From Arenicellales bacterium (GTDB lineage: Bacteria > Pseudomonadota > Gammaproteobacteria > Arenicellales > JAJDZL01), in the NCBI GenBank assembly GCA_965200765.1, contig OZ241380.1, positions 1,106,417-1,170,416 of the forward strand: DNA of 64,000 nt, written 5' to 3'. The stretch's first letter is position 1; each line of letters begins with the position of its first letter. This document shows positions 1,429 to 46,807 of the stretch, piece after piece. Under the pieces are notes generated by a model, which saw nothing but the letters and a program-made list of their open reading frames with translations, made no database searches and had not been told where the DNA came from. The translations under genes and the position numbers were made by a program.

Positions 1429-2097
1429 CTACAGCGCGCGTCTCACATCTTGCTGGCGTTGTGAAATGTAGTTTTTCATTGCCAGTTCGGCGCGGTCCGG
1501 ATCGCGCTGGGCGATAGCTTCGGCAACATCATGCGTCATCACCTCGTGTGCTTCGGCGATAGAATGCCAATTCCCCAGTTTTGATGAGATAAAGAACCAA
1601 AGGCGCAGGTGAAGATTGAATATTCTCGGAATTGCTTCAGCCAAATATCCATTCTGAGATGCTTCTGCCAATACCTTGTAGAATTTTCGGTCCAGAAAAA
1701 CATACTGGTCAATGTTGTCATCGCGAGTTGCCTGAACCAAAGCCTGGTGAATATCAAGCAAGTCATCAGCTTGCTTGGCAGTTGCCCGATTTGCGGCAAG
1801 CCGGCAGGCAAACCCGTCAATCAAACTTCTGAATTCGTAGATTTCCTGCATTGCCGTATAGCTGATTTCCGAAACAAACATGCCGCGATTCAGGCGATGC
1901 ACAACCAGTCCTTCACGCGCCAGCCGTTGCAACGCTTCCCGAACTGGCGTGCGGCCGATATTCAGCTCTTCCACCAAAACTTGTTCTGCCAAAACAGCAC
2001 CGGGTTGAAGGTCCAGACGGGTAATGCGGGTTACGAGTTCATTGTAGGCCTTGTCTGCAAGGGAAACGGGAGGTGATTTTTCAGTTGAGTTGGGCAT
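1429..2097 (-). CDS. GntR-family (FadR/FCD-type) transcriptional regulator
   Basis: N-terminal wHTH (LNIGRTPVREALQRLAREGLV) followed by an all-helical FCD-like C-terminal domain. It is the last gene of the co-directional operon, 12 nt after the upstream gene. Confidence 0.85.
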   Translation of the reverse strand: MPNSTEKSPPVSLADKAYNELVTRITRLDLQPGAVLAEQVLVEELNIGRTPVREALQRLAREGLVVHRLNRGMFVSEISYTAMQEIYEFRSLIDGFACRLAANRATAKQADDLLDIHQALVQATRDDNIDQYVFLDRKFYKVLAEASQNGYLAEAIPRIFNLHLRLWFFISSKLGNWHSIAEAHEVMTHDVAEAIAQRDPDRAELAMKNYISQRQQDVRRAL

Positions 2098-2109
2098 TTC
2101 TCCGTTTTT

Positions 2110-3063
2110 CTACGATTCAGGTGAAGCAACAAGTGTTCCCAATCCTTTTGACAACTTGTCTGTATCCAACTGTTGGCCAATGATCACAAGACGGTTGGTC
2201 GATCGTGGGGCGGCTTCCGAAATATCAAGTTGCCCCGCCGAATACTGAACCAGTACAGGTTGATCGTCTATCTGCATAAATCCTTTCATTCGCCAAACCG
2301 TATCAGGCAGCACATCACAATATTGTTTGAATTCAGAGCGGGTGATATCGACCCTGGGTTCAATCACGATTGACATCATCAGCTCGTGAACATGATGATG
2401 GTGATGATGATGGTGCGAACTGGACGGTTCACTCGCATCAGCTTCAGCATCCAGAACCAGGTCCTTTTCAATTTGGCACTGCTCGGTAAAGTAAATCAGC
2501 CCGTCGGGATTGATATTTTTGACTTCGCATGCAACTTTTCGAAGCTCATCTTTATCGGCCAAATCGATTTTGTTGACTACGACGATATCGGCATTCAAAA
2601 TTTGTGATTCGTAGAATTCGCCTAGCATGGAGCGAATTTTGTTGAATTTCGCGGCATCGACAACTGTAACGATCGGACAGATGTCAAAATTTGCTGAAAC
2701 AGAGGGGTCTTCAAAGTCGTCCAGCATATCTTCAGGGTCAGCAACACCACTAGCTTCAACAATAATTCTCTGTGCACCGGCATCATTCACGAGTTCTTCT
2801 GCGGCATTTAGCAACGATCCTTTCAGCGTGCAACAAAGACAACCTGAATTCAATTCTACTGTATCAATCGCGTTGCCTTGAATAATGTCGCCATCCACAC
2901 CGACATCACCAAACTCATTGACAATAATCGCCGTAGGAACTTCATTGCCGGCAGTTTCAATCAAATGGCGCACAAGCGTAGTTTTGCCGGAGCCAAGAAA
3001 TCCAAACAGGAGATGCAGGTTCGCTTGATTCGAGTGCGATCGGGTTGAAGTTTCTGTCGACAT
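2110..3063 (-). CDS. COG0523 / CobW-type G3E P-loop GTPase metallochaperone with His8 tract
   Basis: Walker A GFLGSGKTT, COG0523 hallmark GCLCCT, NKID (NKxD). A His-rich linker SSSHHHHHHHHVH (nt 2391-2414) precedes a CobW_C-like domain. Confidence 0.85.
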   Translation of the reverse strand: MSTETSTRSHSNQANLHLLFGFLGSGKTTLVRHLIETAGNEVPTAIIVNEFGDVGVDGDIIQGNAIDTVELNSGCLCCTLKGSLLNAAEELVNDAGAQRIIVEASGVADPEDMLDDFEDPSVSANFDICPIVTVVDAAKFNKIRSMLGEFYESQILNADIVVVNKIDLADKDELRKVACEVKNINPDGLIYFTEQCQIEKDLVLDAEADASEPSSSHHHHHHHHVHELMMSIVIEPRVDITRSEFKQYCDVLPDTVWRMKGFMQIDDQPVLVQYSAGQLDISEAAPRSTNRLVIIGQQLDTDKLSKGLGTLVASPES

Positions 3064-3069
3064 TGCCGC

Positions 3070-5022
3070 TTACTGCGATATAGATTCTGTAGATCGTTTA
3101 ATCCGTGTTTCTCTTCGAGACTTTGCGGTTGACCTCGCTGCCGATGGAAACGGCATTCCGGAAAATGACATGGAATCCACGAAAATATCCTGAAAATCCG
3201 GACGTGCGGCAAGCGCAACATGTTCAATGCTTTGACTGATTTCATATGCGGATTGGCGTTCGGTTTCCGACAGCAATGCCATTTGTGCACCAAGCAGAGC
3301 TGCATTGCCTACATAGGCGATACGCTCATGCGGCAAATTGGGTAGCAAGCGAATGGTTTTGGCACTTTCGATACTGACATAATTGCCAAATCCACCACAA
3401 AGCATCAGTTGTTCAATTTGTTCATCCTGAATATTCATGACAGTTTGAAGCATGCGAATTCCTGAATAAATAGCACTCTTTGCCAATTGCAACTGTCTGA
3501 CATCGCCTTGTGTGACACCGATGTTTTTCTTCTTGCCAGTTTCTTGATTCCAAACGAGGACGAATTCGGCCGAGCCATTGTCTGATTTTACCAACCGTTC
3601 CCGAATGCAGTCCGGCAACTCTTCAAGGTCCCGCTTTCGCATGTTTCCGTTGCTATCCATAATATGCGAATCAATCATTTTCGCCGCAGCATCAATGAGT
3701 CCTGAACCACAGATTCCAATTGCCGGCACGTCGCCGATGATCAGGCAGTTAAAATCGTTATTCACCTCGACTTTTTCAATTGCACCCAAAGCCCCCCGCA
3801 TGCCGTCTCGAATCTGTGCACCTTCCAGTGCCGGACCAGCTGGAGCAGAGCATGCCGTCATTCGTTTGCGCGACCCCATGACAACTTCGCCATTGGTGCC
3901 GATATCCACCAGTGCGCGAATCTCTTCACTCTCATGAATTCGAGTGGACAAGATGCATCCGACTGTATCAGCACCGACAAAACCTGCAATGATCGGTAGC
4001 AAGCATACCTTTGCCTTGGGTGCCGCCTTGAGCGGCAGATCGGCAGAGCTCAGAACCAGATTTTCCCGAACCACGGGAGCGTATGGCGCCAAGCCTACGT
4101 AAGAAACATCAATCCCGAGAAAAATATGATGCATGCAGGTATTGCCGACTACGACAATTTTATAGACATGCTCGGGTGATACGCCTGCTTCTTTGCAGGT
4201 TTGACGAATATATTCGTTCACTGCATTCAGAATTTTGGCGCGCAACGTAGACAATTTTTTATCGTCAAATTGCGCGTAGGCGATGCGCGACATCAGGTCG
4301 CCGCCATACACGGCTTGCGGATTTACACCGCCCGCCGAGGCCAGTTGTTCGCCAGATTTCAGGTCTAGCAGAGTTGCAACTACGCTAGTAGTGCCAATGT
4401 CAAAAGCCATGCCGTAGACGTGCTCCGTGGTATCACCGGCTTCAACATCAATCAACTCGCCATTGAATGTCGTAATTGTCAATTTGCCATTTTCGGCCCG
4501 AAGCAATTGGGGAATTTTACGTAGCAAATGAATGGAAGATTGAGTTGCATCGAGTTCGGCCGCACCCAGAATTTCCTCAATGTCTGAAGTCTGGTGATGT
4601 TCTTCAACCGGGAGGTTTGCGTGAATGATTCGTTTCTCCACACCACTGTCAAGGTGCATGCGATGGTTGTCCATTGACGAGTTTCCCGATTCAAGAATTT
4701 GATGTCCTTGCTCGGCTTTCGGCGGCACCGCCATGACAGTTGTATCGCCGAGCATACGCGTCTGACAGGCGAGGCGAAAACCTTCGTGAACTTCATCATG
4801 TCCTAGCTGCACTGAATCTTGTACAGTGGGCGGTGGTGTATCACCTTCCAAAATCTTGACCCGACAACTGCGACAACGCCCACGGCTACCGCAAGTTGCG
4901 TCGATATTGATTCCAGCCTGGCGCGAGGCTTCCAGAATTGTTGCGTCGCGAGCTACATTGACGGTTCTCGGTTTCTCGGCGCTACTGAGACCAACAAAAG
5001 TAACTGCAATGTCGGCAGACAT
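3070..5022 (-). CDS. RACo-like reductive activator of corrinoid proteins ([2Fe-2S] ferredoxin + ASKHA/DUF4445 ATPase)
   Basis: N-terminal plant-type ferredoxin pattern CGSRGRCRSCRV...LACQT. The C-terminal part has actin/sugar-kinase-fold phosphate motifs AFDIGTTSV and LVDIGTNGEVV. Its start overlaps the stop of the corrinoid protein gene. Confidence 0.8.
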   Translation of the reverse strand: MSADIAVTFVGLSSAEKPRTVNVARDATILEASRQAGINIDATCGSRGRCRSCRVKILEGDTPPPTVQDSVQLGHDEVHEGFRLACQTRMLGDTTVMAVPPKAEQGHQILESGNSSMDNHRMHLDSGVEKRIIHANLPVEEHHQTSDIEEILGAAELDATQSSIHLLRKIPQLLRAENGKLTITTFNGELIDVEAGDTTEHVYGMAFDIGTTSVVATLLDLKSGEQLASAGGVNPQAVYGGDLMSRIAYAQFDDKKLSTLRAKILNAVNEYIRQTCKEAGVSPEHVYKIVVVGNTCMHHIFLGIDVSYVGLAPYAPVVRENLVLSSADLPLKAAPKAKVCLLPIIAGFVGADTVGCILSTRIHESEEIRALVDIGTNGEVVMGSRKRMTACSAPAGPALEGAQIRDGMRGALGAIEKVEVNNDFNCLIIGDVPAIGICGSGLIDAAAKMIDSHIMDSNGNMRKRDLEELPDCIRERLVKSDNGSAEFVLVWNQETGKKKNIGVTQGDVRQLQLAKSAIYSGIRMLQTVMNIQDEQIEQLMLCGGFGNYVSIESAKTIRLLPNLPHERIAYVGNAALLGAQMALLSETERQSAYEISQSIEHVALAARPDFQDIFVDSMSFSGMPFPSAARSTAKSRRETRIKRSTESISQ

Positions 5023-5023
5023 T

Positions 5024-5731
5024 TCAAGCCCAGGCTTCTCTTTGCTCTTGCACTAGTCGAAGGGCGAGACGAACCGCTTCAACTGCATCTTTTCCCCAGC
5101 CATCTGCACCACATTCGTCGGCCCAATCCTGGGTTGTCGGTGCGCCGCCAATCAAGATCTTCACTTTGCCACGATGACCGGCATTACAAAATTCGTCAAT
5201 GGTAACTTTCTGATAGTAGACGGTCGTGGAAAGCAGGGCAGAAAACCCGATCAGATCAGCATTTTCTTCCAGCGCAGTTTGAATGAACCGGTCGGGATGA
5301 ACATCCGTACCCAAATTGATGACCCGGAAGCCGGCATTTTCAAGCATGATGGTCACAATGGATTGTCCGATATCATGCATATCGCCCAGTACAGTTCCAA
5401 TCACGAAAGTACCGACCGGTTTTTCCGCCATGGCGGCCAAAAGCGGACGAATCAGTGCCAATCCCGCTTTCATCGCACGCGCGGTGATCAACATTTCCGG
5501 AATAAAAATCACCTGTGCACTAAATCGGTCTGCTTGCAGATTGAAGCCCGGAAACAATCCGTCGTCCAAAATGACTCGCGGGTCGATATCAGCATCAATG
5601 GCTTGCTTGACCCTCTCGTCCGTATAGACATGATCGCCGGTTTCAACAGCATCCCAAAGTGTTTCCCATTCCCAGCCTTCGGGGGCTCGTTCTTCCCAGC
5701 CTGTTGGAATTTCTAATTCAGGTTCGTCCAT
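5024..5731 (-). CDS. Corrinoid (cobalamin-binding) protein, MtaC/MtgC/MetH-B12-domain type
   Basis: B12-binding motifs DxHxxG (GDMHDIGQ), SxL (SALLSTT) and GG (LIGGAP), preceded by a helical cap domain. Confidence 0.9.
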   Translation of the reverse strand: MDEPELEIPTGWEERAPEGWEWETLWDAVETGDHVYTDERVKQAIDADIDPRVILDDGLFPGFNLQADRFSAQVIFIPEMLITARAMKAGLALIRPLLAAMAEKPVGTFVIGTVLGDMHDIGQSIVTIMLENAGFRVINLGTDVHPDRFIQTALEENADLIGFSALLSTTVYYQKVTIDEFCNAGHRGKVKILIGGAPTTQDWADECGADGWGKDAVEAVRLALRLVQEQREAWA

Positions 5732-5754
5732 GGTTGCAGCTCCGATGAGTTTCT

Positions 5755-6924
5755 CTAGTTCAGTGGATATTTGCCATAAGTGCCAAAGTCGCGTTGTGCT
5801 TCCAGCATTGTAAAAATGTTTTGAATTGGCACATCGGCGAGTATGTAGTGGGCCGGTGAAAAAATATAACCACCGCCAGTCGCCAGGTTTTTCATAACTT
5901 CGCAGACACCGTTTCGTACGGCTTCAACTTGGCCGCGAGGAAGTAGTCTCTGTACATCAAATCCACCGATGAATGCAATGTCATCCCCGTACTGTTTTTT
6001 CAGATCGACCTGGTTCTTGTTGCCGCCTGTGGGTTGCATCAGGCCTGACAGGTCAACTCCAAGTTCAATCATGTCGCCGATGATCGGAGAGTAGTCTCCG
6101 CAAGAATGCAACTTGATGAAGATATCCTTGTTGGTTTCACGGAATTTCTTGAACATATAGTCAAATCTGGGTTTGCCCAGCTCACGCCACTGCTGTGGAG
6201 ATATCATCATGGATTGCTGTGCGCCGACATCATCGCCCACGCGAATCATGTCAATTCCCAGGTCAATTACGTTTTGTCCAAGTTTGGTGTAGTATTCGGT
6301 TAGTCCGTCCAGCACACCATGGATCAGCTCCGGTTCATCAAACAGATAGAGAAAGAAATTCTGTGTGCCAACCAAATGAGCGTAGGCCGCTTCGATCAAT
6401 GTGGAAGACAGGTCGACGATTATGAAATACTCGTCCTGATATTGGTCCAACAACGTACGAATTGGACCAATCAATTCTTCATCAGCCGGGTCTGGCCATG
6501 TATAGTTTTTCAAGTCTTCCATGGAGGTAATTGGGTGAAAGTTGGGAAAATTTTCCGGTACGACTTTGGCGGGTCCCCAAAAATCCTGCGTTTTCTGGAA
6601 CTCAAGGTGTTCTTCTTCGGTTCTGCCTTTGAGTCCGCTTTTGCCATAGCCAACTCCAAAGTGGTTGTACCAGGTTTCACCGATTGCAATGGGTCGATGG
6701 GAAAATTCGGCATTGATTCCGATTTGATAAATAATTGCATCGTTTCCCAGCCGAAGTTCCAATTCCGGATTGTGCTTCAAGCCTGTACCGGTTTTTTCAA
6801 TCCCGAAAACGCGGGCGATTTTCTCCTTGGCTTCGCTTTTCATGCGATACAGAAGGGGGACACGGTCCACAGGTTCGTGCCTGACAGCCCGTGCGAATCG
6901 TTCACGAGGAATTAACTCTTTCAT
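5755..6924 (-). CDS. URO-D-family (MtaA/MtbA/MtsA/CmuA-N-like) corrinoid-dependent methyltransferase with putative Zn site
   Basis: Length and overall pattern fit the uroporphyrinogen-decarboxylase-like methyltransferase family. It has an HxC motif KLHSCGD (H273 nt 6106-6108, C275 nt 6100-6102) and a downstream Cys (C341 nt 5902-5904). Confidence 0.75.
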   Translation of the reverse strand: MKELIPRERFARAVRHEPVDRVPLLYRMKSEAKEKIARVFGIEKTGTGLKHNPELELRLGNDAIIYQIGINAEFSHRPIAIGETWYNHFGVGYGKSGLKGRTEEEHLEFQKTQDFWGPAKVVPENFPNFHPITSMEDLKNYTWPDPADEELIGPIRTLLDQYQDEYFIIVDLSSTLIEAAYAHLVGTQNFFLYLFDEPELIHGVLDGLTEYYTKLGQNVIDLGIDMIRVGDDVGAQQSMMISPQQWRELGKPRFDYMFKKFRETNKDIFIKLHSCGDYSPIIGDMIELGVDLSGLMQPTGGNKNQVDLKKQYGDDIAFIGGFDVQRLLPRGQVEAVRNGVCEVMKNLATGGGYIFSPAHYILADVPIQNIFTMLEAQRDFGTYGKYPLN

Positions 6925-6989
6925 GGTGTCTGTTCTCCTGGATCAATTGGGTTAAGTGATTGAGTGAATTTTACAAACATTGCCTGAAT

Positions 6990-8000
6990 TTACTTCATGC
7001 TCTTGCGAGCGGTTCTGTTTGATTTGGTAATTGATCGAATGTATCGTAGATACTGTACAGAAAACTCGTCTTCTGCTGTAAGTGCATTCACTGCAAACCG
7101 AAAGTCGTCGAACGGCTTCACCGGATTCATAATCGGGTCGATCATCAGGGAATCACAACCGGCCAGAATGGACAGACTGACAAAAGCATGGTTCAAGATT
7201 TTCCTTTGTGGCAGTCCGAATGACACGTTGCTGTGTCCGCCGAATATATGAACTTTCGGATAGCGGGAACGCATTGTTCGCACTGCGTCCAGATAGTGGT
7301 TGCCGAAATCCGGTCCGGCACCAATGGGAAACACCAGCGGGTCCAAAAAACGATCCTCTATTGCGATGCCACCTTCCTCCATCATACTCATGCATTGTTC
7401 AAGATTTTCAATGCGTTGTTCAGCATTCTGGGGCATGCCTTTATTGCCACTTGCATTTGCGAACAGCAAGGCATTTCGCTCTTTTGCCATATCTACAAGC
7501 ACTTGTCTGCCATCTTCCAGATTGAACGAATTAATTGCAGGTCTGCTGATTGACCCGTCGTGTGCTTCCAGGCCCGCGTAAATCGTGTTTGAATCCGAAG
7601 AATCAATCGAAACAATACTGCTGGTGATGGATTGGGCAGTTTTGACGAGCCATTTTATCCATTCGTAGCGTTCTTCGGGATACACAGACATTTCGTCAAC
7701 ACACAGATCAATGATATGTGCACCCCCGCGTTCTTGAGCTCGAATCACCCAGGTGATGTAATCCATGTTCTTTTGTCGGCATGCTTCGGCGATGTGCGGA
7801 ATGGCGAAGAGCGCCTGTTCGTTCGGATCTTCCGGCATGCTACTCGTAACATCCAATCGTCCGGGAGTCGAGTCCAGTTTCGTATAAGTTACAAAAAATT
7901 TCCCATTTTCTTGTATCACACGAGTGCTGGATGCCTTGATTTTTCGAGTGGCATTGAAATTTTCGCCGATGATGACCAAGCCGTTATTTGCTACTTTCAT
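6990..8000 (-). CDS. Pterin-binding methyltetrahydrofolate:corrinoid methyltransferase (MetH-pterin/AcsE/CmuB/MtgA-like)
   Basis: DHPS-like TIM-barrel family. The N-terminal LVIIGENFNATRK resembles the IGERxN motif of MeTr/MetH pterin domains. IIDLCVDE and GLPQRK-type motifs are present. Confidence 0.75.
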   Translation of the reverse strand: MKVANNGLVIIGENFNATRKIKASSTRVIQENGKFFVTYTKLDSTPGRLDVTSSMPEDPNEQALFAIPHIAEACRQKNMDYITWVIRAQERGGAHIIDLCVDEMSVYPEERYEWIKWLVKTAQSITSSIVSIDSSDSNTIYAGLEAHDGSISRPAINSFNLEDGRQVLVDMAKERNALLFANASGNKGMPQNAEQRIENLEQCMSMMEEGGIAIEDRFLDPLVFPIGAGPDFGNHYLDAVRTMRSRYPKVHIFGGHSNVSFGLPQRKILNHAFVSLSILAGCDSLMIDPIMNPVKPFDDFRFAVNALTAEDEFSVQYLRYIRSITKSNRTARKSMK

Positions 8001-8021
8001 AGAATTGATTCCGTAACTTTG

Positions 8022-8678
8022 TCACTCGGGGAGCAATCCGTACATTCCGGAGCGCGACATTTTCGGAAGCATGGCGGCGCTTTCCAGAAGTGAAATGGGA
8101 ATTTGCGTGTCATCAAAAACCGTGAACAACTTTTTCTGGTCAAACAGGTCCCACTGAATCTGGTGTCCATCAATGGGATAGGAATAACCCGGTCCGAGTC
8201 GACGCGTGATTCTGAGTTGTTGCTTGTGTGCCCAACGGCGGGTTGTAATCACAAACTGCTTGGTGGCATTTTCGACACTCAGCCAAGCGGCCGATTCCAG
8301 AAACAGTGCCTCCACCAGCAACTCTTCATCCATCCATTGAATGGTTTGGTCGTCGACGGCTTTTCCGGCGGTCAAAGCAAATATGACGGCTTCTTTCGAG
8401 TTATTCATATATCGTTGAAAAATCTGGCTCTTCATGGAGACACCATTTTCCAGCACAATCTTGTCCTCATCAAGACAATCAACTGCAACAATGCGGTAGC
8501 TGACAGTGGGTTGAACAACGTCTGTCAATGCCTGAATAGCTGTTTCAGCTGCCTTGACAACCGCTGGTCGCACTTTTGCACCTTCCTTGTATCCATGTAT
8601 TCGCAATACAGAATCAAGTTTCGGTTTTGACTTGGCAAGTGAAACAGTTTGAGTTCGACCTCTTACTAAATTGTCCAT
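8022..8678 (-). CDS. Stand-alone MetH activation (AdoMet-binding reactivation) domain-like protein
   Basis: At 218 aa it matches the size of stand-alone Met_synt_B12-domain proteins. RRLGPGYSYPIDGH resembles the RxxxGY AdoMet-binding motif of the MetH C-terminal domain. Confidence 0.6.
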   Translation of the reverse strand: MDNLVRGRTQTVSLAKSKPKLDSVLRIHGYKEGAKVRPAVVKAAETAIQALTDVVQPTVSYRIVAVDCLDEDKIVLENGVSMKSQIFQRYMNNSKEAVIFALTAGKAVDDQTIQWMDEELLVEALFLESAAWLSVENATKQFVITTRRWAHKQQLRITRRLGPGYSYPIDGHQIQWDLFDQKKLFTVFDDTQIPISLLESAAMLPKMSRSGMYGLLPE

Positions 8679-8785
8679 TTCAACCTATCAGGCAATGAAA
8701 TATATATTCAAAATATATCATTTAAAAACAGCCTGTAGGGTACTTTCTTCAATTCTCCAATAATTGACCTATGAGAACAGGGGGT

Positions 8786-9634
8786 TTAACTGGTATTTTC
8801 CGGTTTTGGAAGCCGGGTCGCCAAGAGTTTGTACAAACCTGCGCCGACAACTGCCCCTACCATTGGTCCCAAAATATAGACAATGAAAAATCCGCCGCGA
8901 GGTCCTGGTATGGCAATATTTCCCCAGCCGAGAAAGAATGCGGCCAGACGGGGGCCGAAATCACGCGCCGGATTCATGCAACCCATGGTAATCGGACCCA
9001 GCACTGAAATGATTGCAGCGACGCAAACACCAATTACGACAGCCGCGATAGGAAAGTTTGGACGAGCATCATTGTGCGGGTGAATCACTGCTGCGATCAC
9101 AAACGCCATGACACCTGTACCAACGATTTCAGCGATAAACGCGGTGGGCATGCCAACAATCTGCCATGCTTCTTCACCTGTACCGTAGGTAGCCGGATTC
9201 GGAAAGTACAGACCGTAAGCCATTGCGCTTAGCTGACTGCCGGGTTCGCCTCGCAAAATCTCAAGTTTCGCTTCATAGGCCAGTATGGCATCGGCGAAGA
9301 TATAGTGAACAACAAACCCGGCGCAAACACCGGCAGTAATCTGAACGATCCAGTAGGGCAGAATTCGCCTGGCCGGAAAACCGTTCCAAACGGCGAACAT
9401 TAATGTAACAGCAGGATTAATGTGCGCCCCCGAAAGAGTTGCGGCTGTATAGATTCCCAGCGTTACACCAATCCCGGCAATGACTGCCACTTGCCACACT
9501 CCCATTTGTGCGCCGCCGATTGCTGCTGCGTGAGCTGAGCCGATACTAAAGAATACTAGTACGAATGTCCCTAAAAATTCTCCGCTGAGAGCTGACTTCA
9601 AGCTGGGGAGAGTTTGCTTGTCGTTGTCAGACAA
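8786..9634 (-). CDS. MIP-family channel (aquaporin/aquaglyceroporin-like)
   Basis: Hydrophobic six-helix pattern with two NPA boxes (GAHINPAVT and GCMNPARDFG). Confidence 0.9.
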   Translation of the reverse strand: MSDNDKQTLPSLKSALSGEFLGTFVLVFFSIGSAHAAAIGGAQMGVWQVAVIAGIGVTLGIYTAATLSGAHINPAVTLMFAVWNGFPARRILPYWIVQITAGVCAGFVVHYIFADAILAYEAKLEILRGEPGSQLSAMAYGLYFPNPATYGTGEEAWQIVGMPTAFIAEIVGTGVMAFVIAAVIHPHNDARPNFPIAAVVIGVCVAAIISVLGPITMGCMNPARDFGPRLAAFFLGWGNIAIPGPRGGFFIVYILGPMVGAVVGAGLYKLLATRLPKPENTS

Positions 9635-9677
9635 TGAACTTTCCCGTTTTCTGTATGAACAAAGAGTTTGTTGAAAC

Positions 9678-10595
9678 TTAGTTTACGCTGATTGACGTAT
9701 TGTCTTCACTCAGCGAAAATCTTCCGTCGGCTACTGCTTGAAACCAATCGGATGATTTTTTGAGTCCCCCAAAAGGATACACATGAAGTTTTTGAATCGG
9801 GCAGTCTGGATTGTCGCGACGAAACTGTGCCAATTCAATCAGGAGTTTCTCCGGTGTTGAGTTTTGTAACAGTTTGGAAGTGTTTTGCGCTTGCCGCCTC
9901 AATACCTTGATTGAAGGGCCTACACCGCATTGCATTGCATGTCGAAGCAGTGTTCCAAGCGTTGCAACTCCTGGCGCACCGATGTGAACGGGGAGTTCAA
10001 TTCCATCGTCGTCGATTTTCTTTTGCCAGCCGAGTACGGTTTTTGATTCAAAGCAGAATTGCGTGATGATGTAAATCTCGGCACTGGTGTGTTGAGCAAA
10101 CTCATTTTTCCAGTCCAAAGCCAATTTGATGTCTTTGTCCGGAATGTCAGGACTGCCTTCCGGATGACCTGCAATACCGATTTTTTGAATGCCGTACTTG
10201 TCGAACAATCCGGTTTGAAGCAACTGCATGGAATTCGAGAATTCACCGACTGGCTTGGCCGAACCGCCAGCGATTGCGAGAATCTGCCTGGAATCGTTTT
10301 CTTCTGTGAACCGCTTCAATCCGGTTTCCAGTACTTCTTCATTTTGAATTTGACGGGCCGCGAAATGCGGTACCGGAGTTAATCCTTCGGACGACAGTCG
10401 CTGGCACAAATTCAATGTATCGTACAAATGGGTGCCGGGTAGCAGGGTGACGTACACTTCGGTCTTGCTTGGCAAAATATCGCGATAGCTTGAAATTTTG
10501 GCCGCGGCTCCGGGCGTAGTTTCAACCGAATATCCCTGAGTCAATTCCTGGATGTGTGAAAACGTGCTAACAGACAATGTTTTTTCCTCGATCAT
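9678..10595 (-). CDS. Methylenetetrahydrofolate reductase (MetF)-like protein
   Basis: MTHFR-family motifs in the correct order: SVETTP (cf. SFEFFPP), VPHFAAR, LAIAGG, AGHPEGSP (cf. GYPEGH), ITQFCFE (cf. TQFFFD). Confidence 0.75.
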   Translation of the reverse strand: MIEEKTLSVSTFSHIQELTQGYSVETTPGAAAKISSYRDILPSKTEVYVTLLPGTHLYDTLNLCQRLSSEGLTPVPHFAARQIQNEEVLETGLKRFTEENDSRQILAIAGGSAKPVGEFSNSMQLLQTGLFDKYGIQKIGIAGHPEGSPDIPDKDIKLALDWKNEFAQHTSAEIYIITQFCFESKTVLGWQKKIDDDGIELPVHIGAPGVATLGTLLRHAMQCGVGPSIKVLRRQAQNTSKLLQNSTPEKLLIELAQFRRDNPDCPIQKLHVYPFGGLKKSSDWFQAVADGRFSLSEDNTSISVN

Positions 10596-10631
10596 TGGTT
10601 GTCTTGAAATACAAAATTTGAAAAGCTCCTG

Positions 10632-11165
10632 CTACTTCCACTCAAAGTAAACCACTGCGTCGTGAAAATCGTTGATGTCTTCTTCGCAGGAGGACAGAAT
10701 TCTGAAACCGTCATTGCTCTCGTTTCGCCAATTCATGTCAAGCATAATACGATTGGCAACCCAATAGTCAGATATCTTGTGTCCGATCAATACGAACACC
10801 AATGAGTTGCTGATTACGATGCCGTCGTCCGGCCCCAATCGTGTATTCATCGGACGAGGAGTTTGCCAATCTGCAACAATGTTGCTAGCGTCAGCATCCA
10901 GCGAGTCCACGATTGCAACGCGCTGAATCGGCCACGCAAAGGAATTACCGGTGATTTTCGTCTCTCCTTCAGGCAACTTGCAGGCCACCGCGAGAAGATG
11001 GTCGCCGCGGAAGGAGAGTTTGTCGTACAGGTTTTGACTACCATCAACGGCAACACAACCGGTTTCATTCAATTCGTTCAGTGACTGAATTGGCGGTGCA
11101 ACCCAGTCCATATTTTTCAATGAATGGCGGTTGAATTGAGGTACAGGAAATCGTTTTGCCCACAT
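10632..11165 (-). CDS. Hypothetical protein, first gene of the corrinoid operon
   Basis: 177-aa ORF, co-directional and 36 nt upstream of the MTHFR-like gene. No TM segment, signal peptide or motif I recognise. An alternative start lies at MDWVAPP. Confidence 0.55.
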   Translation of the reverse strand: MWAKRFPVPQFNRHSLKNMDWVAPPIQSLNELNETGCVAVDGSQNLYDKLSFRGDHLLAVACKLPEGETKITGNSFAWPIQRVAIVDSLDADASNIVADWQTPRPMNTRLGPDDGIVISNSLVFVLIGHKISDYWVANRIMLDMNWRNESNDGFRILSSCEEDINDFHDAVVYFEWK

Positions 11166-11240
11166 GTTGGTGAATTGGCTTTACTTGTAAAGTGAATGGA
11201 CAATTATAATACCAGTTTTATTTGGATGGCATCTTGGGTA

Positions 11241-11254
11241 TTTGTCAATACAAA
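11241..11254. promoter_or_regulatory. Candidate GntR-family operator (TTTGT-N4-ACAAA inverted repeat) in the divergent promoter region
   Basis: tttgtcaatacaaa has 5-bp perfect inverted arms and contains the GT-Nx-AC core typical of GntR/FadR-type operators. It lies 76-89 nt upstream of the operon's first start codon. Confidence 0.3.
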
Positions 11255-11398
11255 GCGACATTTTGGGTTGAATTTGTGAATCGTCTCTTACGTAAAATAA
11301 ATGGTTCAAACCCTCCTCGCAATCAATTCCGATTATACTCTATTAACGGATATGTCAGTTTATCCAATTGATTTTCAACAACGCGAGACGATGCAAAC

Positions 11399-11689
11399 AT
11401 GGCGAAAGTAACAATTCTTTACTGGCAGGATATACCGTCTGTCGTAGAAGCCCGCGAGGGCAGGGAAGTACACAAAGAATTACTTAGCGAGCGATTTCAG
11501 GAGCTGATCGACCTGGTTGCGATGAAGAAGAATTTGGCCGGCACAGACGACTACCTCAATCACTGGACTAAAGGTTCCCCTACGACAGTTGAGGGTTCAC
11601 CCGAGGAAGCGGCACGAAAGGTCAAGGAAGAACTTGAAGCTCGCTACAAAGAAATCCGTAAAGAAGAACTCGCGAAGGCGGTTGGTTAG
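11399..11689 (+). CDS. Small 'virulence factor'-domain family protein (function unknown)
   Basis: 96 aa. The N-terminal KVTILYWQDIPSVVEA motif matches my recollection of the Pfam Virulence_fact family, often found next to MTHFR and corrinoid methyltransferase genes. It is divergent from the operon. Confidence 0.5.
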   Translation: MAKVTILYWQDIPSVVEAREGREVHKELLSERFQELIDLVAMKKNLAGTDDYLNHWTKGSPTTVEGSPEEAARKVKEELEARYKEIRKEELAKAVG

Positions 11690-11736: not shown

Positions 11737-12114
11737 TTACAAGTGCCCAGTTTCCTCTAATACTTTCTTTGCTGCCCGAAAGCACTCCAACGCTTGGGGT
11801 ACGCCGCAATAAATCCCGACAATGTGGATGATGGCGCGAATCTCTTCCACAGAAACGCCGTTGTTGATTGCACCGCGGCAGTGCAATTCCCATTCGTGCA
11901 TCTTGCCAAGTGCACCAATCATCGCCAAGTTAATCATGGAACGTTGCTTTGCACTGATACATTCGTCTCCCCAGCCAAATCCCCAGCACCACTCAGTCAT
12001 CGCCTCCTGAAATGGTCGCGTAAAGTCATCGCCAGCGAGATTTTTGTTGACATATTCTTCACCCAAAGTCGCTTTTCGCTTTGCCAGACCTTTTTCAAAT
12101 AGCTGTTGGTCCAT
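11737..12114 (-). CDS. Carboxymuconolactone decarboxylase (CMD/PcaC-like) family protein
   Basis: 125 aa with the typical gamma-CMD pattern (FTRPFQEAMTEWCWGFGWGD, ISAKQRSMINLAM, ELHCRGAINNGVSVEEI). Confidence 0.8.
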   Translation of the reverse strand: MDQQLFEKGLAKRKATLGEEYVNKNLAGDDFTRPFQEAMTEWCWGFGWGDECISAKQRSMINLAMIGALGKMHEWELHCRGAINNGVSVEEIRAIIHIVGIYCGVPQALECFRAAKKVLEETGHL

Positions 12115-12517
12115 TCAATTCACTCCATATCGTCAGTTCAAGAAACAAAAGTATTGTGTATTTCAGGTCAAATTCTTGCCTTCTTGTGTTCTCTTAGTTG
12201 ATTTGAATTTCTCATGAGAACACGCGTCAACAAGCAATAAGACCTGATTGACTACCCCAGATCCTGTCTGATGAATTTTTGTACTCGCAAGTCTGCTGGC
12301 CTGTAGCCATAGACAGTAGTATTCAGTTGTCAGGCGAGAAAACAGGGTCAAAGTGAAGTATAGCAGGTATTCGTGGGCGAGAACATTTCGCGAAAATTAT
12401 CAGAGTGAGTTGCCCGCTGATTCAACACCAAGCCTAGGCATGTCAATTTGCGGATTTGTAGGTGAACTTGTAGTTAAAATCAGTATCGTAATCGAAACAC
12501 TTATTCAATACATTTCA

Positions 12518-13582
12518 ATGGATTTCTGCATTCAGCTCTCCGCATACTATCCAAGCCACGAACTGGGCGGAAAGCAATTGTACAGCAATATGCTGGAGCA
12601 GGCGGTTCTGGCTGACCAGGTTGGTTTTGAATCGGTGTCCTGTACCGAGCATCACCTTATCAATATTCTGCTGATGCCAGCACCTTTGCAGTTTGCTGTC
12701 AGGATTGCCAGCATGACAGACCGCGTCAAAATCATAACGACTGTGGTTGTGCTTCCGCTTCACGACATGCGAGTCTATGCCGGCGAGGTCATTTGCGCGG
12801 ACATTTTTACCGAAGGCCGCCTGTTGCTCGGGGTTGGTCGCGGTGCATTTGAATTTGAAATGGACCGGCTGGGTGTACCTTTGGAAAACACCAGAGAAAA
12901 ATTTGACGAGTCTTTAAATGTATTGCAAGCGTTGCTGTCTCGGCGGGAGGTTTCCTGGGACGGTCAGTACTACAATTTCCCACCGCTTACGGTGATGCCC
13001 AGACCGACAAAATCCGGCGGACCACCGATCATGATGAGTGCGATCGTGCCAGAAGCAATCTATCATAGTGCCAAACGCGGCTTCCATATTCAAACAACAC
13101 CATTGTCAGGCTCGCACGAGCATATGTTGAAGCAAGTTGATGCTTTCCAGCGAGGAAAACAAGAGCTGGGGTGCGAAGGAGAGGCTTTGACTCTTTCGAT
13201 GTCAAGAGTTGCGTTTGTTGCCAGAAACGATGCTGACAAAAAACAGAAAACCGAACTGGCGCATCACTACTACGGACAATTCGACAATGTTTTTACCGGT
13301 GATGGCATAGTGAATGACGGCATCATTGTACCCATTCCGCGCAAAGTTCCGATTGAAGAAACAGCAAAGAATCTGCACATCTGCACAGCTTCCGAAATGG
13401 TTGACCAATTGGCACCGTATGCAGAAGCCGGTGTAAACCGTTTCATTCTCAATGTCAATTTCGGTGCCGACCAGATTGATACACTGGAGTGCATCGAGCG
13501 TTTCGCAACTGAAGTGATGCCCGAGTTTTCAGAAACACCCGCGAATCAGGTTTCACCTGGTACTGATATTGCTTCGAAATGA
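12518..13582 (+). CDS. LLM-class (luciferase-like) flavin-dependent oxidoreductase
   Basis: The TIM-barrel LLM pattern begins at MDFCIQLSAYYP (GFESVSCTEHH, LLLGVGRG). The ORF-track start at 12353 adds 55 non-homologous residues, so the ATG at 12518 is preferred. Confidence 0.75.
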   Translation: MDFCIQLSAYYPSHELGGKQLYSNMLEQAVLADQVGFESVSCTEHHLINILLMPAPLQFAVRIASMTDRVKIITTVVVLPLHDMRVYAGEVICADIFTEGRLLLGVGRGAFEFEMDRLGVPLENTREKFDESLNVLQALLSRREVSWDGQYYNFPPLTVMPRPTKSGGPPIMMSAIVPEAIYHSAKRGFHIQTTPLSGSHEHMLKQVDAFQRGKQELGCEGEALTLSMSRVAFVARNDADKKQKTELAHHYYGQFDNVFTGDGIVNDGIIVPIPRKVPIEETAKNLHICTASEMVDQLAPYAEAGVNRFILNVNFGADQIDTLECIERFATEVMPEFSETPANQVSPGTDIASK

Positions 13583-14349
13583 TTGCAAAAGGAATTTGCT
13601 TTGAGGTTGCCGGCGATGGACCGCCTTTGTACATGATTCATGGTATTGGTTCCCGCAAAACCACCTGGAATCCGCTTGTAGCTGAGCTTGCAGCGCATTT
13701 CACTTGCGTATCGTACGACTTGCGCGGACATGGAGGCAGTGATGTGTTACCCACCCCTTATTTGCTGGACGATTTGGTAAATGATTTGGAGACACTGAGG
13801 AGCCATTTGGGGCACGAACAAATTCGGATAGTGGGGCATTCTCTGGGTGGCATGATAGGGCCAGCATATGCACGGGCATATTCAGACAAAGTTCACTCTC
13901 TGGTTCTACTAAGTACGGCGGCGGGACGTTCGAAAGAAGATCGCAACAAACTCAAAGTACTGACTGATTCAATGAACGAAAAGGGTGTAATGCCAGTGAT
14001 TGACACGCTGGTTCATCGCTGGTTCACCGATGGCTTCATTGCAAATCGACCCGACGCAATCGAACATCGAAAACGACAAATCGAGGAAACCCCGGAAAAT
14101 GTTTTCCTCAGTGTATTTCAAATTTATGCACAAACCGAAATGGCACCGTGGTTGAAGGAAATCAAAGGTCCTTGCCTGATCATGACAGGTGAACTGGACG
14201 GCGGTTGCCATGTAACCCTCAATCGTTTCATGCACGGTGAACTGAAAAACTCCAAGCTGGTCATATTGGACGGGTTGAAGCATTCAATCCTTGTGGAAGC
14301 TCCCGACCGAGTGCTGAAGCATGTGAAAGAATTCCTGCTTGATGAGTGA
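13579..14349 (+). CDS. Alpha/beta hydrolase (3-oxoadipate enol-lactonase-like)
   Basis: HGIGS oxyanion region and nucleophile elbow GHSLGG. C-terminal GLKHS provides the catalytic His. There is a 4-nt overlap with the upstream gene. Confidence 0.8.
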   Translation: MIAKGICFEVAGDGPPLYMIHGIGSRKTTWNPLVAELAAHFTCVSYDLRGHGGSDVLPTPYLLDDLVNDLETLRSHLGHEQIRIVGHSLGGMIGPAYARAYSDKVHSLVLLSTAAGRSKEDRNKLKVLTDSMNEKGVMPVIDTLVHRWFTDGFIANRPDAIEHRKRQIEETPENVFLSVFQIYAQTEMAPWLKEIKGPCLIMTGELDGGCHVTLNRFMHGELKNSKLVILDGLKHSILVEAPDRVLKHVKEFLLDE

Positions 14350-21803: not shown

Positions 21804-23507
21804 TCAGAACAAAAAGTATCGTTGTGCCAATGGCAGTGTTTTTTCCGGTTCTGCTGTCAGCAACTCTCCATCCGCACGAACTTCATAGGTTTGCGGGTCA
21901 ATTTCCATATTTGGCAAGTAACTGTTGTGTACCATGTTTCGTTTTGAAATTTGTCGACAGTTTTTCACTGGCGTAATTCGTTTCTGCAGACCTAGTTGCT
22001 CACCCAAATTGCGGTCAAAAGCCGCCTGAGATACAAAACTTAAACTAGTCGCACTGGGTGCGAGTCCATAGGCACCGAACATAGGCCGAAAGTGAACTGG
22101 CTGAGGAGTTGGAATTGAAGCATTTGGATCGCCCATTGCGGCGGCGGCAATCATTCCGCCCTTGATGACAATGTAAGGTCGTACACCGAAAAAAGGTGTT
22201 TCCCAAATCACCAAATCCGCCAGTTTGCCCACTTCGATTGAACCGATTTCATGAGAAATACCGTGTGCGAGGGCAGGGTTGATCGTGTATTTTGCGATAA
22301 ATCGCTTGACTCGATGATTATCATGCTCAGCGGAGTCTTCGGTCAACGTGCCGCGTTGTTTCTTTTGGCAATGTGCAACTTGCCAAGTTCGCAGAATCAC
22401 TTCACCGATACGTCCCATTGCCTGAGAGTCTGAGCCAACCATGGAAATAGCTCCCATATCATGCAAGATGCCTTCCGCCGCAATTGTTTCCGGACGAATT
22501 CGGGATTCTGCGAATGCGATGTCTTCTGCCAACTTGAAATCCAGGTGATGGCAAACCATCAGCATGTCAAGGTGTTCACTGACAGTGTTCACACTGTAAG
22601 GGAGTGTGGGGTTCGTGCTGGAAGGCAGTACGTTGCTTTCGCCGCAAGCGCGCATGATGTCGGGGGCATGTCCACCGCCGGCACCTTCGGTGTGATACAT
22701 GTGAATGTTTCGTTCTTTGAAGGCGGCGAGTGTATCTTCCAGAAAGCCCGATTCATTCAGTGTATCGGTATGCAGAGTTACCTGAATGTCGAATTCCTCG
22801 GCAACGCCAAGGCAACAGTCAATCGCAGCCGGGGTAGAACCCCAGTCTTCATGCAGTTTTAATCCAACACAGCCGGCTTCTACTTGCTCTCGCAAAGCTT
22901 CGGGTTGACTGGAATTTCCCTTGCCGGTAAATCCAAAATTCAAAGGCATGGAATCGATTGACTGGTACATACGGTGAATGTTCCATGGGCCGGGTGTGCA
23001 AGTTGTCGCTTTGGACCCGGTAGCCGGTCCGGTGCCGCCGCCGATTAGTGTGGTTGTACCAGACATGAGTGCTTCTTCGGCCAGTTGTGGGCAGATAAAA
23101 TGCACATGAGAGTCAATTGCACCGGCGGTAAGAATCTTGTTCTCACAATCAATGATTTCAGTTCCCGGTCCGATCAGCAGGTTTACACCTGATTGAGTGT
23201 TGGGGTTGCCGGCCTTTCCAATTCCGGCTATGCGTCCGTTTTGAATGCCAACATCTGCTTTGACAATTCCCCAATGGTCGATCACCAAAGCGTTGGTGAT
23301 CACTGCATCCATGACATCATCACCACAATATTGGCTCTGTGCCATGCCATCCCGAACAGTCTTGCCGCCGCCGAATTTTGTTTCTTCGCCAAATACCGTA
23401 TGGTCCTTTTCAACTTGAACCCACAAGTTCGTATCACCCAGCCGGACACAATCCCCGGTCGTGGGTCCATACATTTCTGTATAAGCAACACGATCGATTT
23501 TAGCCAT
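21804..23507 (-). CDS. ureC: Urease alpha subunit
   Basis: 567 aa with the metal-binding HVHFICPQ, the carbamylated-Lys region GLKLHEDWG, and MVCHHLD. Confidence 0.97.
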
Positions 23508-44458: not shown

Positions 44459-44498
44459 AGCTGTTGTAATCAATCGTTGGCTTGGAGAGTTTCTTGCA

Positions 44499-45773: not shown

Positions 45774-45793
45774 CTGAATTGACAGGTATTTGA

Positions 45794-46567: not shown

Positions 46568-46807
46568 GTCCGTCGGCGAAAGGTTCATCCAAATTTTCAG
46601 TACTGCAGACGCAACTCCGCAATCATGGCAGGGCAGTACAGGTGTTTCGCTACTCTGCAAAGTGACACTTCACAGTGTATTTGCAATATAGTTTCAGTTT
46701 CGAGACAATTTGTGACTCAAATTTGAATAAACTAATATATTGAATCTGTCTGACTGTTTGCAGATGGTTCAGTCCATAAACATTTTCACGATAAAGGAGT
46801 TGAAGAT

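Follow-up and report, generated by a model that had tools for sequence, protein, structure and literature searches.

Which compound gives up, or receives, the methyl group in a corrinoid operon whose parts match no characterized system? The question is raised by ten co-directional minus-strand genes and one divergent small gene at positions 1429-11689 of a 64,000-nucleotide (nt) stretch of an Arenicellales bacterium genome (Gammaproteobacteria; assembly GCA_965200765.1, contig OZ241380.1, positions 1,106,417 to 1,170,416), hereafter the window. An earlier, sequence-only reading described a corrinoid methyl relay and held that its substrate could not be read from the sequence. That holds for the window alone but not once related loci are compared, where the relay stands among Aio, ArsH, ArsA, ArsR and ArsI/CadI-like genes. 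We propose that the cluster encodes an oxygen-tolerant three-component corrinoid methyltransferase system, probably one of that known kind with a new substrate class. Because the cluster adjoins arsenic genes in most other bacteria, the operon probably demethylates methylated arsenic. The corrinoid relay would move the methyl groups of methylated arsenicals to tetrahydrofolate (THF), releasing As(III) that would exit through a MIP-family channel; we put the probability of this reading at about 0.55. A metalloid had been the more speculative option of the sequence-only reading and now leads, because the cluster is interleaved with arsenic genes in other lineages.

Domains were called with Pfam and NCBIfam profile searches using curated cut-offs, which confirmed the ten minus-strand open reading frames (ORFs) and the divergent PF13769 gene at the positions first assigned to them. 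In the order of transcription, the array starts with g01 (10632-11165), a protein of 177 amino acids (aa) with neither a Pfam nor an NCBIfam match. It continues with the MTHFR-like protein g02 (9678-10595; PF02219 at only 26 bits), the MIP-family channel g03 (8786-9634; PF00230, 130 bits; NPA...NPARD) and g04 (8022-8678), a 218-aa stand-alone MetH reactivation domain of the S-adenosylmethionine (AdoMet)-binding type (PF02965, Met_synt_B12, 18 bits, sub-cut-off). The central genes encode the pterin-binding methyltransferase g05 (6990-8000; PF00809, Pterin_bind, 64 bits), which would pass methyl groups between the methyl-corrinoid and THF, the 389-aa URO-D-family methyltransferase g06 (5755-6924; PF01208, 110 bits) and the 235-aa corrinoid protein g07 (5024-5731; PF02607, B12-binding_2, and PF02310, B12-binding). 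They are followed by g08 (3070-5022), a RACo-type ATP-dependent reductive activase in which Fer2, RACo_linker, Raco_middle and RACo_C_ter each score above cut-off, by the COG0523 (CobW/ZigA-like) metallochaperone GTPase g09 (2110-3063; PF02492, 155 bits, and PF07683) and by the last gene of the array, the GntR/FCD transcription regulator g10 (1429-2097; PF00392 and PF07729). The divergent gene gV (11399-11689, plus strand) encodes 96 aa of the PF13769 "virulence factor" family (58 bits). Counted from the GntR gene to g01, the gaps are 12, 6, 1, 23, 65, 21, 107, 43 and 36 nt; the first description, 1-44 nt except for one gap of 107 nt, had the 107-nt gap right and missed one of 65 nt, which separates the pterin gene from the URO-D gene. 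The domain matches bear out a relay built from separate URO-D, corrinoid, pterin, RACo-type and stand-alone MetH reactivation proteins. As had also been claimed, g06 and g07 are unfused, being separate ORFs 23 nt apart, and a domain search of the cluster genes found no MttB- or MtaB-type gene.

To place this operon among its relatives, we scanned one genome per species and obtained 31 loci, nearly all from metagenome-assembled genomes (MAGs) of Arenicellales (Gammaproteobacteria), many of them assembled to a single chromosome of 3-4 Mb. About 85 further loci came from contig look-ups of homologues in Hyphomicrobiales and unclassified Pseudomonadota and from a metagenome scan. A synteny table was computed over all loci with tblastn; individual loci carry L numbers below, and a locus outside the Arenicellales counts as fully flanked if it extends for at least 8 kb to either side of the cluster (n = 17). 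The whole gene order is kept in all 26 Arenicellales loci with complete flanks, and about 30 more loci, from other lineages, retain the core of pterin, URO-D, corrinoid protein, RACo, CobW and GntR genes. Such an arrangement goes far beyond what chance would give. Across Arenicellales, identity to the window proteins is 86-90% for the URO-D protein, 84-91% for the corrinoid protein and 77-89% for the pterin methyltransferase, and the peripheral proteins (g01, MTHFR-like, g04 and CobW) are 52-70% identical. The hosts, aerobic members of the Alpha- and Gammaproteobacteria, come from samples of marine, freshwater and soil origin.

Outside the Arenicellales, the cluster keeps company with arsenite oxidase genes. 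Within 10 kb, AioB was found in 14 and AioA in 13 of the 17 fully flanked loci; these loci also carry a pentapeptide-repeat protein (11/17), a MIP channel (9/17) and a PF02574 homocysteine methyltransferase (8/17). One unit recurs, g01-MTHFR-AioB-AioA-pentapeptide-MIP. It is placed either divergently from an array that reads PF13769, g04, (pterin), URO-D, corrinoid protein, RACo, CobW and GntR, or directly downstream of the GntR gene. L083 joins nearly everything in one 12-gene co-directional array (PF13769, g04, pterin, URO-D, corrinoid protein, RACo, CobW, GntR, MTHFR, AioB, AioA, pentapeptide), followed by a MIP match. Since the 29 Aio-linked loci span 41-69% G+C content (GC) and at least four gene arrangements, the linkage has outlasted repeated rearrangement. 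The AioA protein scores 1017 bits against TIGR02693 (cut-off 359) and AioB 147 bits against TIGR02694 (cut-off 96). AioA also matches the Alcaligenes enzyme (PDB 1g8k/8rtm) with 788 bits and conserves H195, E203, R419 and H423, which we take to be the arsenite ligands of Aio. The small subunit AioB carries a twin-arginine signal with the Tat motif RRRDFLK. These matches identify the linked enzyme as a genuine arsenite oxidase.

Other arsenic genes turn up at loci without a visible Aio. L098 carries ArsR, ArsH (TIGR02690, 403 bits against a cut-off of 292) and an ABC exporter, and L091 carries ArsR and ArsA (PF02374, 308 bits). Four Arenicellales genomes have a cassette of ArsR, an ArsI/CadI-family protein (110.5 bits, cut-off 116) and a small MIP in the exact slot of the window MIP. 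The window proteins g01, MTHFR and MIP are 38%, 46% and 55% identical to their orthologues in Aio operons. The window MIP and the MIP linked to Aio in L032 share 55% identity and a long loop insertion; we therefore read the window operon as an Aio-less variant of the Aio-linked system, that is, as the same system without the aioBA-pentapeptide segment.

Two other features of these loci were recorded. The pentapeptide-repeat protein (about 315 aa; L032 1802-2764, with equivalents in 16 loci) is always encoded between aioA and the MIP gene, its gene sometimes overlaps aioA by 4 nt, and to our knowledge it is not part of canonical aio operons. A PhsA/Psr-like molybdopterin oxidoreductase lies beside the cluster in L032 (17581-20275), L033, L034, L039, L051, L103 and L107, with a 4Fe-4S subunit after it wherever the sequence reaches that far (L032, L033, L034 and L103). 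Its scores against PhsA (409 bits) and ArrA (187 bits) are both under cut-off, and it could conceivably be a methyl-arsenical or arsenate reductase.

The arsenic neighbours might be indirect. The operon would then be a demethylase for another donor, such as methoxylated aromatics, methyl halides, dimethyl sulfide (DMS), methanethiol, methylmercaptopropionate (MMPA) or methanol, and the arsenic genes would protect a thiol- or B12-dependent pathway in arsenic-rich niches or share a genomic island with it. The parts list is that of acetogen and archaeal O-demethylases and of an unfused CmuAB, the window version has no arsenic gene, the regulator is of the GntR/FCD family, and the aerobic "DMS methyltransferase" is still unidentified (PMC6548844). 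Against a non-arsenic donor stand the persistence of the AioBA linkage through at least four rearrangements and 41-69% GC, the ArsH, ArsA and ArsI-like genes that accompany ArsR in additional loci, and the position of AioBA within the operon, between the MTHFR-like gene and the MIP gene. Moreover, the flanks show no recurring genes related to aromatic rings, sulfur oxidation or halides. We consider a non-arsenic donor unlikely. The specific idea that this is the aerobic DMS methyltransferase of Methylophaga was ruled out, the host being a member of Arenicellales and the flanks having no recurring sulfur-oxidation genes.

The enzyme that would meet the substrate is g06, likely the substrate-specific component and proposed here, from gene context, to be a methyl-arsenical:corrinoid methyltransferase. 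It scores 82.1 bits against TIGR01463 (mtaA_cmuA; cut-off 235.4) and 55 and 52 bits against the MtaA and MtbA equivalog models (cut-offs 400 and 600). The closest entry in the PDB, MtaA (4ay7), matches over the C-terminal half with a modest E of 1.6e-9. These NCBIfam scores, together with a search of representatives, rule out a place inside MtaA, MtbA, CmuA or HemE. In a 50%-identity library, the g06 family forms one full-length representative, followed by relatives at 45-48% and then at no more than 38%. One of the 45-48% relatives, the URO-D-corrinoid fusion P0190, lies in a sigma-54/MFS context without arsenic genes, and the contig of the second relative checked is too short to show its context. 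Such a fusion was seen only in P0190. That g06 falls under the MtaA/CmuA cut-off and has its nearest outgroup in a different, non-arsenic context is a further point against a non-arsenic donor. Because the clade is isolated, extremely conserved and outside MtaA/CmuA, a new substrate for g06 is plausible.

The conservation of g06 is high. More than 120 clusters at 90% are 78-100% identical to it, and the homologues in loci L024 to L116 are 71-81% identical to the window protein across Alpha- and Gammaproteobacteria with a local GC of 41-69%. Over the whole clade, members are 71-90% identical in hosts of 41-69% GC. In an accessory enzyme, this suggests strong constraint, horizontal spread or both. 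An insertion at about residues 95-125 of g06 is specific to the family and is absent from its nearest relatives, P0187 and P0190. The proposed zinc motif "HxC...C" stood in part. In an alignment of 22 homologues, H273-S-C275 and H359 are invariant, and the presumed second cysteine, C343, varies (C/Y/L/H/F). The MtaA site is H240/C242/C319, and the column of the third zinc ligand of MtaA, Cys319, holds the invariant His359 in g06, so that g06 does not conform to the MtaA site. A tblastn search with g06 against 72,556 plasmids gave no match, and all cluster members with a source name come from MAGs, none from a cultured isolate. The MAG sources are Paracoccaceae, Hyphomicrobiales, Chromatiales, Thiotrichales, Acidiferrobacterales and Arenicellales. 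A second, divergent pair of URO-D and corrinoid-protein genes lies a few kb from the main cluster in L066 (19174-21160), L096 and L113.

The direction of methyl flow had been left balanced in the sequence-only reading, with two directions fitting equally well. This balance did not survive comparison, and the direction is probably demethylation, as judged from g02 and the gene neighbourhoods. The g02 protein matches S6MTHFR (PDB 7xg9) with 173 bits (E 1e-49), as against 29-35 bits for canonical MTHFRs. S6MTHFR of Sphingobium lignivorans is the founding type 4 MTHFR and oxidizes methyl-THF (CH3-THF); type 4 MTHFRs pair with THF-dependent demethylases, including LigM, CmuAB and Dmt (PMC11868366). 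The residues E21, L48 (NADH-blocking), Q175 and P268-F269 are retained in g02, which therefore resembles type 4 in its similarity to S6MTHFR, in Leu48 and in the Pro-Phe of loop beta8-alpha11; the local sequence is YPFGG in the window protein and YPLG in other cluster homologues. The pterin-binding catalytic residues of type 4, Glu21, Asp107 and Gln175, are not all kept. Glu and Gln are present, and the pterin-binding Asp107 (E. coli D120) is Gly in g02 and G/A/S in 20 of 20 cluster-linked homologues. We note that g02 thus looks like a relative rather than a proven member of type 4, in a distinct uncharacterized subfamily. Demethylation is favoured because g02 is nearest to S6MTHFR and has Leu48, because FolD and FTHFS (together with FolB) flank the cluster in L104, and because an arsenite-consuming oxidase belongs to the same operon.

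The reverse direction would make the operon a B12-dependent, ArsM-independent arsenite methyltransferase. The MTHFR-like and pterin enzymes would supply CH3-THF to form methyl-Co(III), g06 would use it to methylate As(III), the product methylarsonate would exit through the MIP channel, and Aio, ArsH and ArsA would provide parallel detoxification in an arsenic island. The arsenic linkage serves this explanation as well as it serves demethylation, and methylcobalamin methylates arsenite non-enzymatically. SahR-like and PF02574 methionine-cycle genes adjoin the cluster in L024 and L025 and fit a supply of CH3-THF, and the lost catalytic Asp would be compatible with either direction of g02. Arsenite methylation is nevertheless quite unlikely in our view. 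The closeness of g02 to the oxidizing type 4 enzymes and its NADH-blocking Leu48 argue against it, FolD and FTHFS in L104 indicate one-carbon (C1) oxidation, and the arsenite oxidase of the same operon would compete for the substrate. A ten-gene route that consumes B12 and ATP would be costly beside ArsM with AdoMet, and the regulator is GntR rather than the As(III)-sensing ArsR.

The remaining relay proteins retain the architecture of their families and fall well short of the characterized equivalogs. In NCBIfam, g05 scores 179 bits against PRK07535 (cut-off 259). The corrinoid protein g07 has the motif DMHDIG (DxHxxG), and its nearest models, pyl_corrinoid (173 bits, cut-off 215) and MtgC (172 bits, cut-off 310), are both under cut-off. 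The activase g08 has the full RACo architecture, an N-terminal [2Fe-2S] Fer2 domain followed by linker, middle and ASKHA C-terminal domains. It scores 447 bits against the AcsV model (cut-off 800) and is therefore not an AcsV orthologue itself. The g04 protein matches PDB 1j6r, a stand-alone Thermotoga "methionine synthase" of 214 aa, over residues 12-193 (E 3.7e-5) and retains RxxxGY as RLGPGY; we take 1j6r to be TM0269, the separate reactivation domain of a split MetH. A g04 gene was found in 30 of 32 long non-Arenicellales loci, and g09, which has a literal His8 tract (HHHHHHHH) in its translation, in 31 of 32. The GntR gene is invariably downstream of the CobW gene, and the best NCBIfam model for g10 is the phosphonate-utilization-associated phnR_burk (105 bits, cut-off 271).

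Departures from this set and recurrent companions were also seen. The RACo gene is lacking altogether in L046, L049 and L056, and in one Arenicellales genome a DDE transposase (PF13701; L007 13850-15340) separates the RACo gene from the CobW gene. Two further proteins recur near the cluster, a ferredoxin-NAD(P) reductase (Pyr_redox_2 and Reductase_C) and a 107-aa Rieske ferredoxin (L024 2531-3742, L104 1103-2410, L032 6989-7312), and could supply the activase with electrons in aerobes. Often, g01 is adjoined by a PrmA-like AdoMet methyltransferase of about 225 aa (L032 8083-8754), which occurs in 11 of 32 long non-Arenicellales loci. It has a faint 23-bit match to the NCBIfam model CpaM (corrinoid protein-associated methyltransferase) and is absent from the window.

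The pterin-binding, B12-binding and reactivation modules of MetH are all present in the cluster (PF00809; PF02607 and PF02310; TM0269-like), far under the equivalog cut-offs. A split methionine synthase is conceivable, in which g06 would act as a zinc thiol methyltransferase in place of the PF02574 domain. The pterin, B12, TM0269-like and RACo proteins correspond to the parts of split MetH systems (PMC12478193), the HxC motif is like that of thiol-activating zinc sites, and PF02574 genes and a SahR-like regulator are adjacent in some genomes. The absence of PF02574, noted earlier as a difference from MetH, holds in the window: the domain is missing from the ten genes, and tblastn with two PF02574 proteins found none across the 64 kb. 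It does not hold elsewhere, as PF02574 partners adjoin the cluster in 8 of the 17 fully flanked loci. Because PF02574 proteins coexist there with g06, g06 does not replace PF02574. A split methionine synthase would also leave the oxidizing-type MTHFR and the arsenic genes unexplained, and the 78-90% conservation of the clade with its patchy spread over Alpha- and Gammaproteobacteria suggests an accessory, horizontally moved trait and not core methionine synthesis. We regard this explanation as very unlikely.

Demethylation of an arsenical can be set out as a sequence of predicted steps. The substrate would be methylarsonate, dimethylarsinate or a related methyl-arsenic compound. Removal of CH3+ from a methylated As(V) species by nucleophilic Co(I) yields As(III), the reverse of the methylation of arsenite by methylcobalamin, and As(III) is both the substrate of Aio and a permeant of aquaglyceroporins. 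In the proposed route, g06 would methylate the Co(I) form of g07 from the arsenical, and g05 would hand the methyl group from g07 to THF. The MTHFR-like g02 would then direct it to C1 oxidation or assimilation, in L104 with the adjacent FolD and FTHFS. In genomes with a PF02574 partner, the methyl group may also go to homocysteine and yield methionine, as MtgE of Ruegeria diverts methyl groups to methionine (PMC12478193). Oxidized Co(II) would be rescued by g08, using ATP and electrons delivered through its [2Fe-2S] cluster, together with g04. The COG0523 GTPase g09 would load the metal site His273/Cys275/His359 of g06, and the GntR/FCD protein g10 would regulate the operon. A neutral trivalent arsenical product such as As(OH)3 would leave through the MIP channel g03, and in most non-Arenicellales lineages the Tat-exported AioBA of the same operon would oxidize the As(III) in the periplasm. 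If dimethylarsenic is the substrate, ArsH, which oxidizes trivalent methylarsenic (MAs(III)), and the ArsI-like neighbours would fit an MAs(III) intermediate. Precedents exist for parts of this route: aerobic marine bacteria demethylate glycine betaine via MtgB/C/D, MetF2 and RamA (PMC12478193), and methanogen corrinoid methyltransferases are suspected of dimethylarsenic demethylation (bioRxiv 10.64898/2026.08.27.747368).

Several observations weigh against demethylation of arsenicals. Across the 64-kb window, tblastn found neither AioA nor AioB, and no ArsH or ars operon lies within it. Three fully flanked non-Arenicellales loci (L066, L113 and L098) have no Aio within 10 kb, although L098 carries ArsR-ArsH instead. 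The MIP channel, the proposed exit, is optional and missing from 8 of 26 Arenicellales loci. The regulator belongs to GntR/FCD rather than ArsR. Known As(III) sites usually have two or three Cys, and g06 has only one invariant Cys. Ambient methyl-arsenic is low for a dedicated ten-gene catabolic operon. Because the Asp is lost in all cluster-linked MTHFR-like proteins, g02 may not be a working CH3-THF oxidase. Finally, a 2026 review (PMC13641113) cites a single physiological study of corrinoid-linked arsenic demethylation; its methanogen, the one organism shown to demethylate dimethylarsenic by methylotrophic metabolism, used trivalent and not pentavalent dimethylarsenic (DMAs(III), not DMAs(V)), which is a misfit with simple CH3+ logic.

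The g01 family comprises about 65 clusters, each of them annotated as hypothetical; its members have the motif DW.TPRPMNTRLGPDDG and Cys62, both invariant. Its AlphaFold2 model (predicted local distance difference test score, pLDDT, 92.5) best matches LecB (1gzt) in Foldseek, with E 7.5e-5 and a template-modelling (TM) score of 0.74 on the target, and g01 is accordingly modelled as a cytoplasmic protein with a LecB/PA-IIL-like beta-sandwich fold; the fold search returned this generic beta-sandwich only, with no functional clue. It is found in all 26 Arenicellales loci and in 15 of the 17 other fully flanked loci. The small gV protein also has a confident AlphaFold2 model (pLDDT 94.6), and a fold search against the PDB found no match (best E 1.2). 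Its gene occurs in 24 of 26 Arenicellales and all 17 other fully flanked loci. It had been described as a divergent "virulence factor" gene, which is correct for the window. It is no bystander but a core member that in other lineages would be transcribed with the rest, being there the first gene of the co-directional array that continues with g04, pterin and URO-D genes. Of the homologues at 66% identity, a single one had its neighbourhood examined, and it lies inside the same cluster. The MIP channel is present in 18 of 26 Arenicellales loci, counting the four with the different, ArsR-linked MIP type.

The 233-nt divergent intergenic region between g01 and gV contains a promoter-like site 5' of g01 (11203-11232, minus strand; ATGCCA-18-TATAAT, 10 of 12 consensus matches). 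In a promoter and terminator scan, site counts were no higher than in shuffled sequence, and this top-scoring -10/-35 pair is a consensus match only. A gathering-level Rfam scan found no cobalamin riboswitch or other RNA near the operon. Its sole match in the window is RF02514 (5' ureB small RNA) at 23072-23359 on the plus strand (81 bits, E 2.4e-19), antisense inside a 567-aa ORF (21804-23507, minus strand) that is probably the urease alpha subunit. The match most likely reflects conservation of the urease coding sequence and not a real small RNA. A UvrA fragment lies beyond the GntR end of the array. On the other side, beside gV at 11737-14349, three genes encode a 125-aa CMD-family protein (minus strand), a 409-aa luciferase-like monooxygenase and a 256-aa alpha/beta hydrolase. 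Only one other cluster locus (L002) was seen with the CMD gene beside it, and the monooxygenase and hydrolase had no matches in the first 31 loci, to which that search was limited. Further away, at about 43364-47836 as located by identity with L117, a DmmA-like_N/Fer2 protein, an Oxidored_FMN protein, an SDR and a TctABC tripartite tricarboxylate transporter may form a separate methylamine or amine-oxidation module.

In surface seawater, paddy soils and marine animals, methylated arsenic (MMA and DMA) forms a major pool of the element, and its demethylation controls arsenic toxicity and rice straighthead disease. We searched the literature for arsenite oxidase or arsenic demethylation in connection with corrinoid, cobalamin or URO-D and did not find the cluster described, which agrees with the claim of novelty made from the sequence; the coverage was incomplete, and an earlier description is possible. 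Two texts of 2026 name ArsI as the only known demethylation gene and give no mechanism for dimethylarsenic (PMC13641113; bioRxiv 10.64898/2026.08.27.747368). A bolder claim, which we advance tentatively and at a little under even odds, is that the operon encodes the first organoarsenical demethylase that is both dedicated and dependent on cobalamin. Its new enzyme, of the URO-D clade, would pass the methyl groups of methylarsonate or dimethylarsinate to THF and, in most lineages, would be coupled to an aquaglyceroporin and Aio, so that As(III) would be exported and respired. If true, the operon would supply the enzyme that has been missing for demethylating dimethylarsenic and methylarsenic under oxic conditions, and would open a new route to both C1 units and electrons from an organoarsenical. 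It would also link one-carbon (folate/B12) metabolism with arsenic redox cycling and offer a possible reason why some arsenite oxidases stand in non-canonical operons. Even with a non-arsenical substrate, this would be an undescribed aerobic corrinoid methyl-transfer system with several uncharacterized parts (g01, PF13769 and the Asp-less MTHFR relative). In either case, the cluster is a concrete, testable gene set, and g06 is a highly conserved marker that can be tracked in metagenomes.

We compared the cluster with the systems it most resembles. As the sequence-only reading held, it corresponds to none of MtaABC, CmuAB, MtgBCD or MetH, whose full sets of defining features its proteins lack. 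Like the methanogen enzymes of the MtaA/MtsA type, which are suspected of demethylating dimethylarsenic, g06 has the URO-D fold and the HxC metal motif and would exchange methyl groups with a corrinoid protein; in g06, His359 replaces Cys319, and the hosts of the cluster have no coenzyme M chemistry. In the split MetH of Thermotoga maritima, which we take to be TM0268 plus TM0269, the homologue of g04 is TM0269 (1j6r), with RxxxGY retained; here g04 is accompanied by an ATP-dependent activase of the RACo type, and a MetH core is lacking. The C-As lyase ArsI has the same proposed net outcome, from methylarsenical to inorganic As(III). ArsI, however, is an Fe(II)/O2-dependent dioxygenase of the VOC fold that acts on MAs(III) and destroys the methyl carbon, whereas here the methyl group would be kept on THF via cobalamin; the two are related neither in sequence nor in mechanism.

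Closer likenesses are found among the multicomponent demethylases. The acetogen and archaeal O-demethylases (Mtv, Odm, MtoABCD) follow the same four-part logic of methyltransferase I, corrinoid protein, methyltransferase II and RACo/RamA-type activator, and employ URO-D-like methyltransferases. They come from anaerobic hosts, act on phenyl methyl ethers and are without Aio, ArsH, MIP, COG0523, g01 or PF13769 partners. In the 50%-identity library, no close sequence relationship of g06 to them was found, its nearest relatives at 45-48% being uncharacterized. The chloromethane pathway of Methylorubrum extorquens CM4 (CmuA/CmuB, MetF2, FolD and PurU) likewise carries out aerobic demethylation to THF with a URO-D/MtaA-like enzyme, a pterin methyltransferase (CmuB) and a type 4 MTHFR, CM4MTHFR having been named type 4 (PMC11868366). 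The methyltransferase and corrinoid protein are fused in CmuA and encoded by separate genes here, the third metal ligand here is His rather than Cys, and the window cluster has no PurU and belongs to a system with arsenic genes as neighbours. Another counterpart in organization is the MtgB/C/D(/E) system with MetF2 and RamA of Ruegeria pomeroyi and Phaeobacter (PMC12478193). It too is aerobic and proteobacterial, and its methyl groups also flow from substrate to cobalt to THF. Its parts are a corrinoid protein encoded separately, a pterin methyltransferase, a dedicated paralogue of MetF, an activase that requires ATP and an optional PF02574 partner. The two systems differ in their substrate enzyme, which here is of the URO-D family and not MttB/PF06253 (PF06253 was not detected in the cluster genes), and in reactivation, where a RACo protein with an N-terminal [2Fe-2S] domain serves as the activase and a TM0269-like domain takes the place of their DUF1638. 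Beyond these exchanges, the cluster adds g01, PF13769, COG0523 and MIP proteins, and its gene context is one of arsenic rather than betaine.

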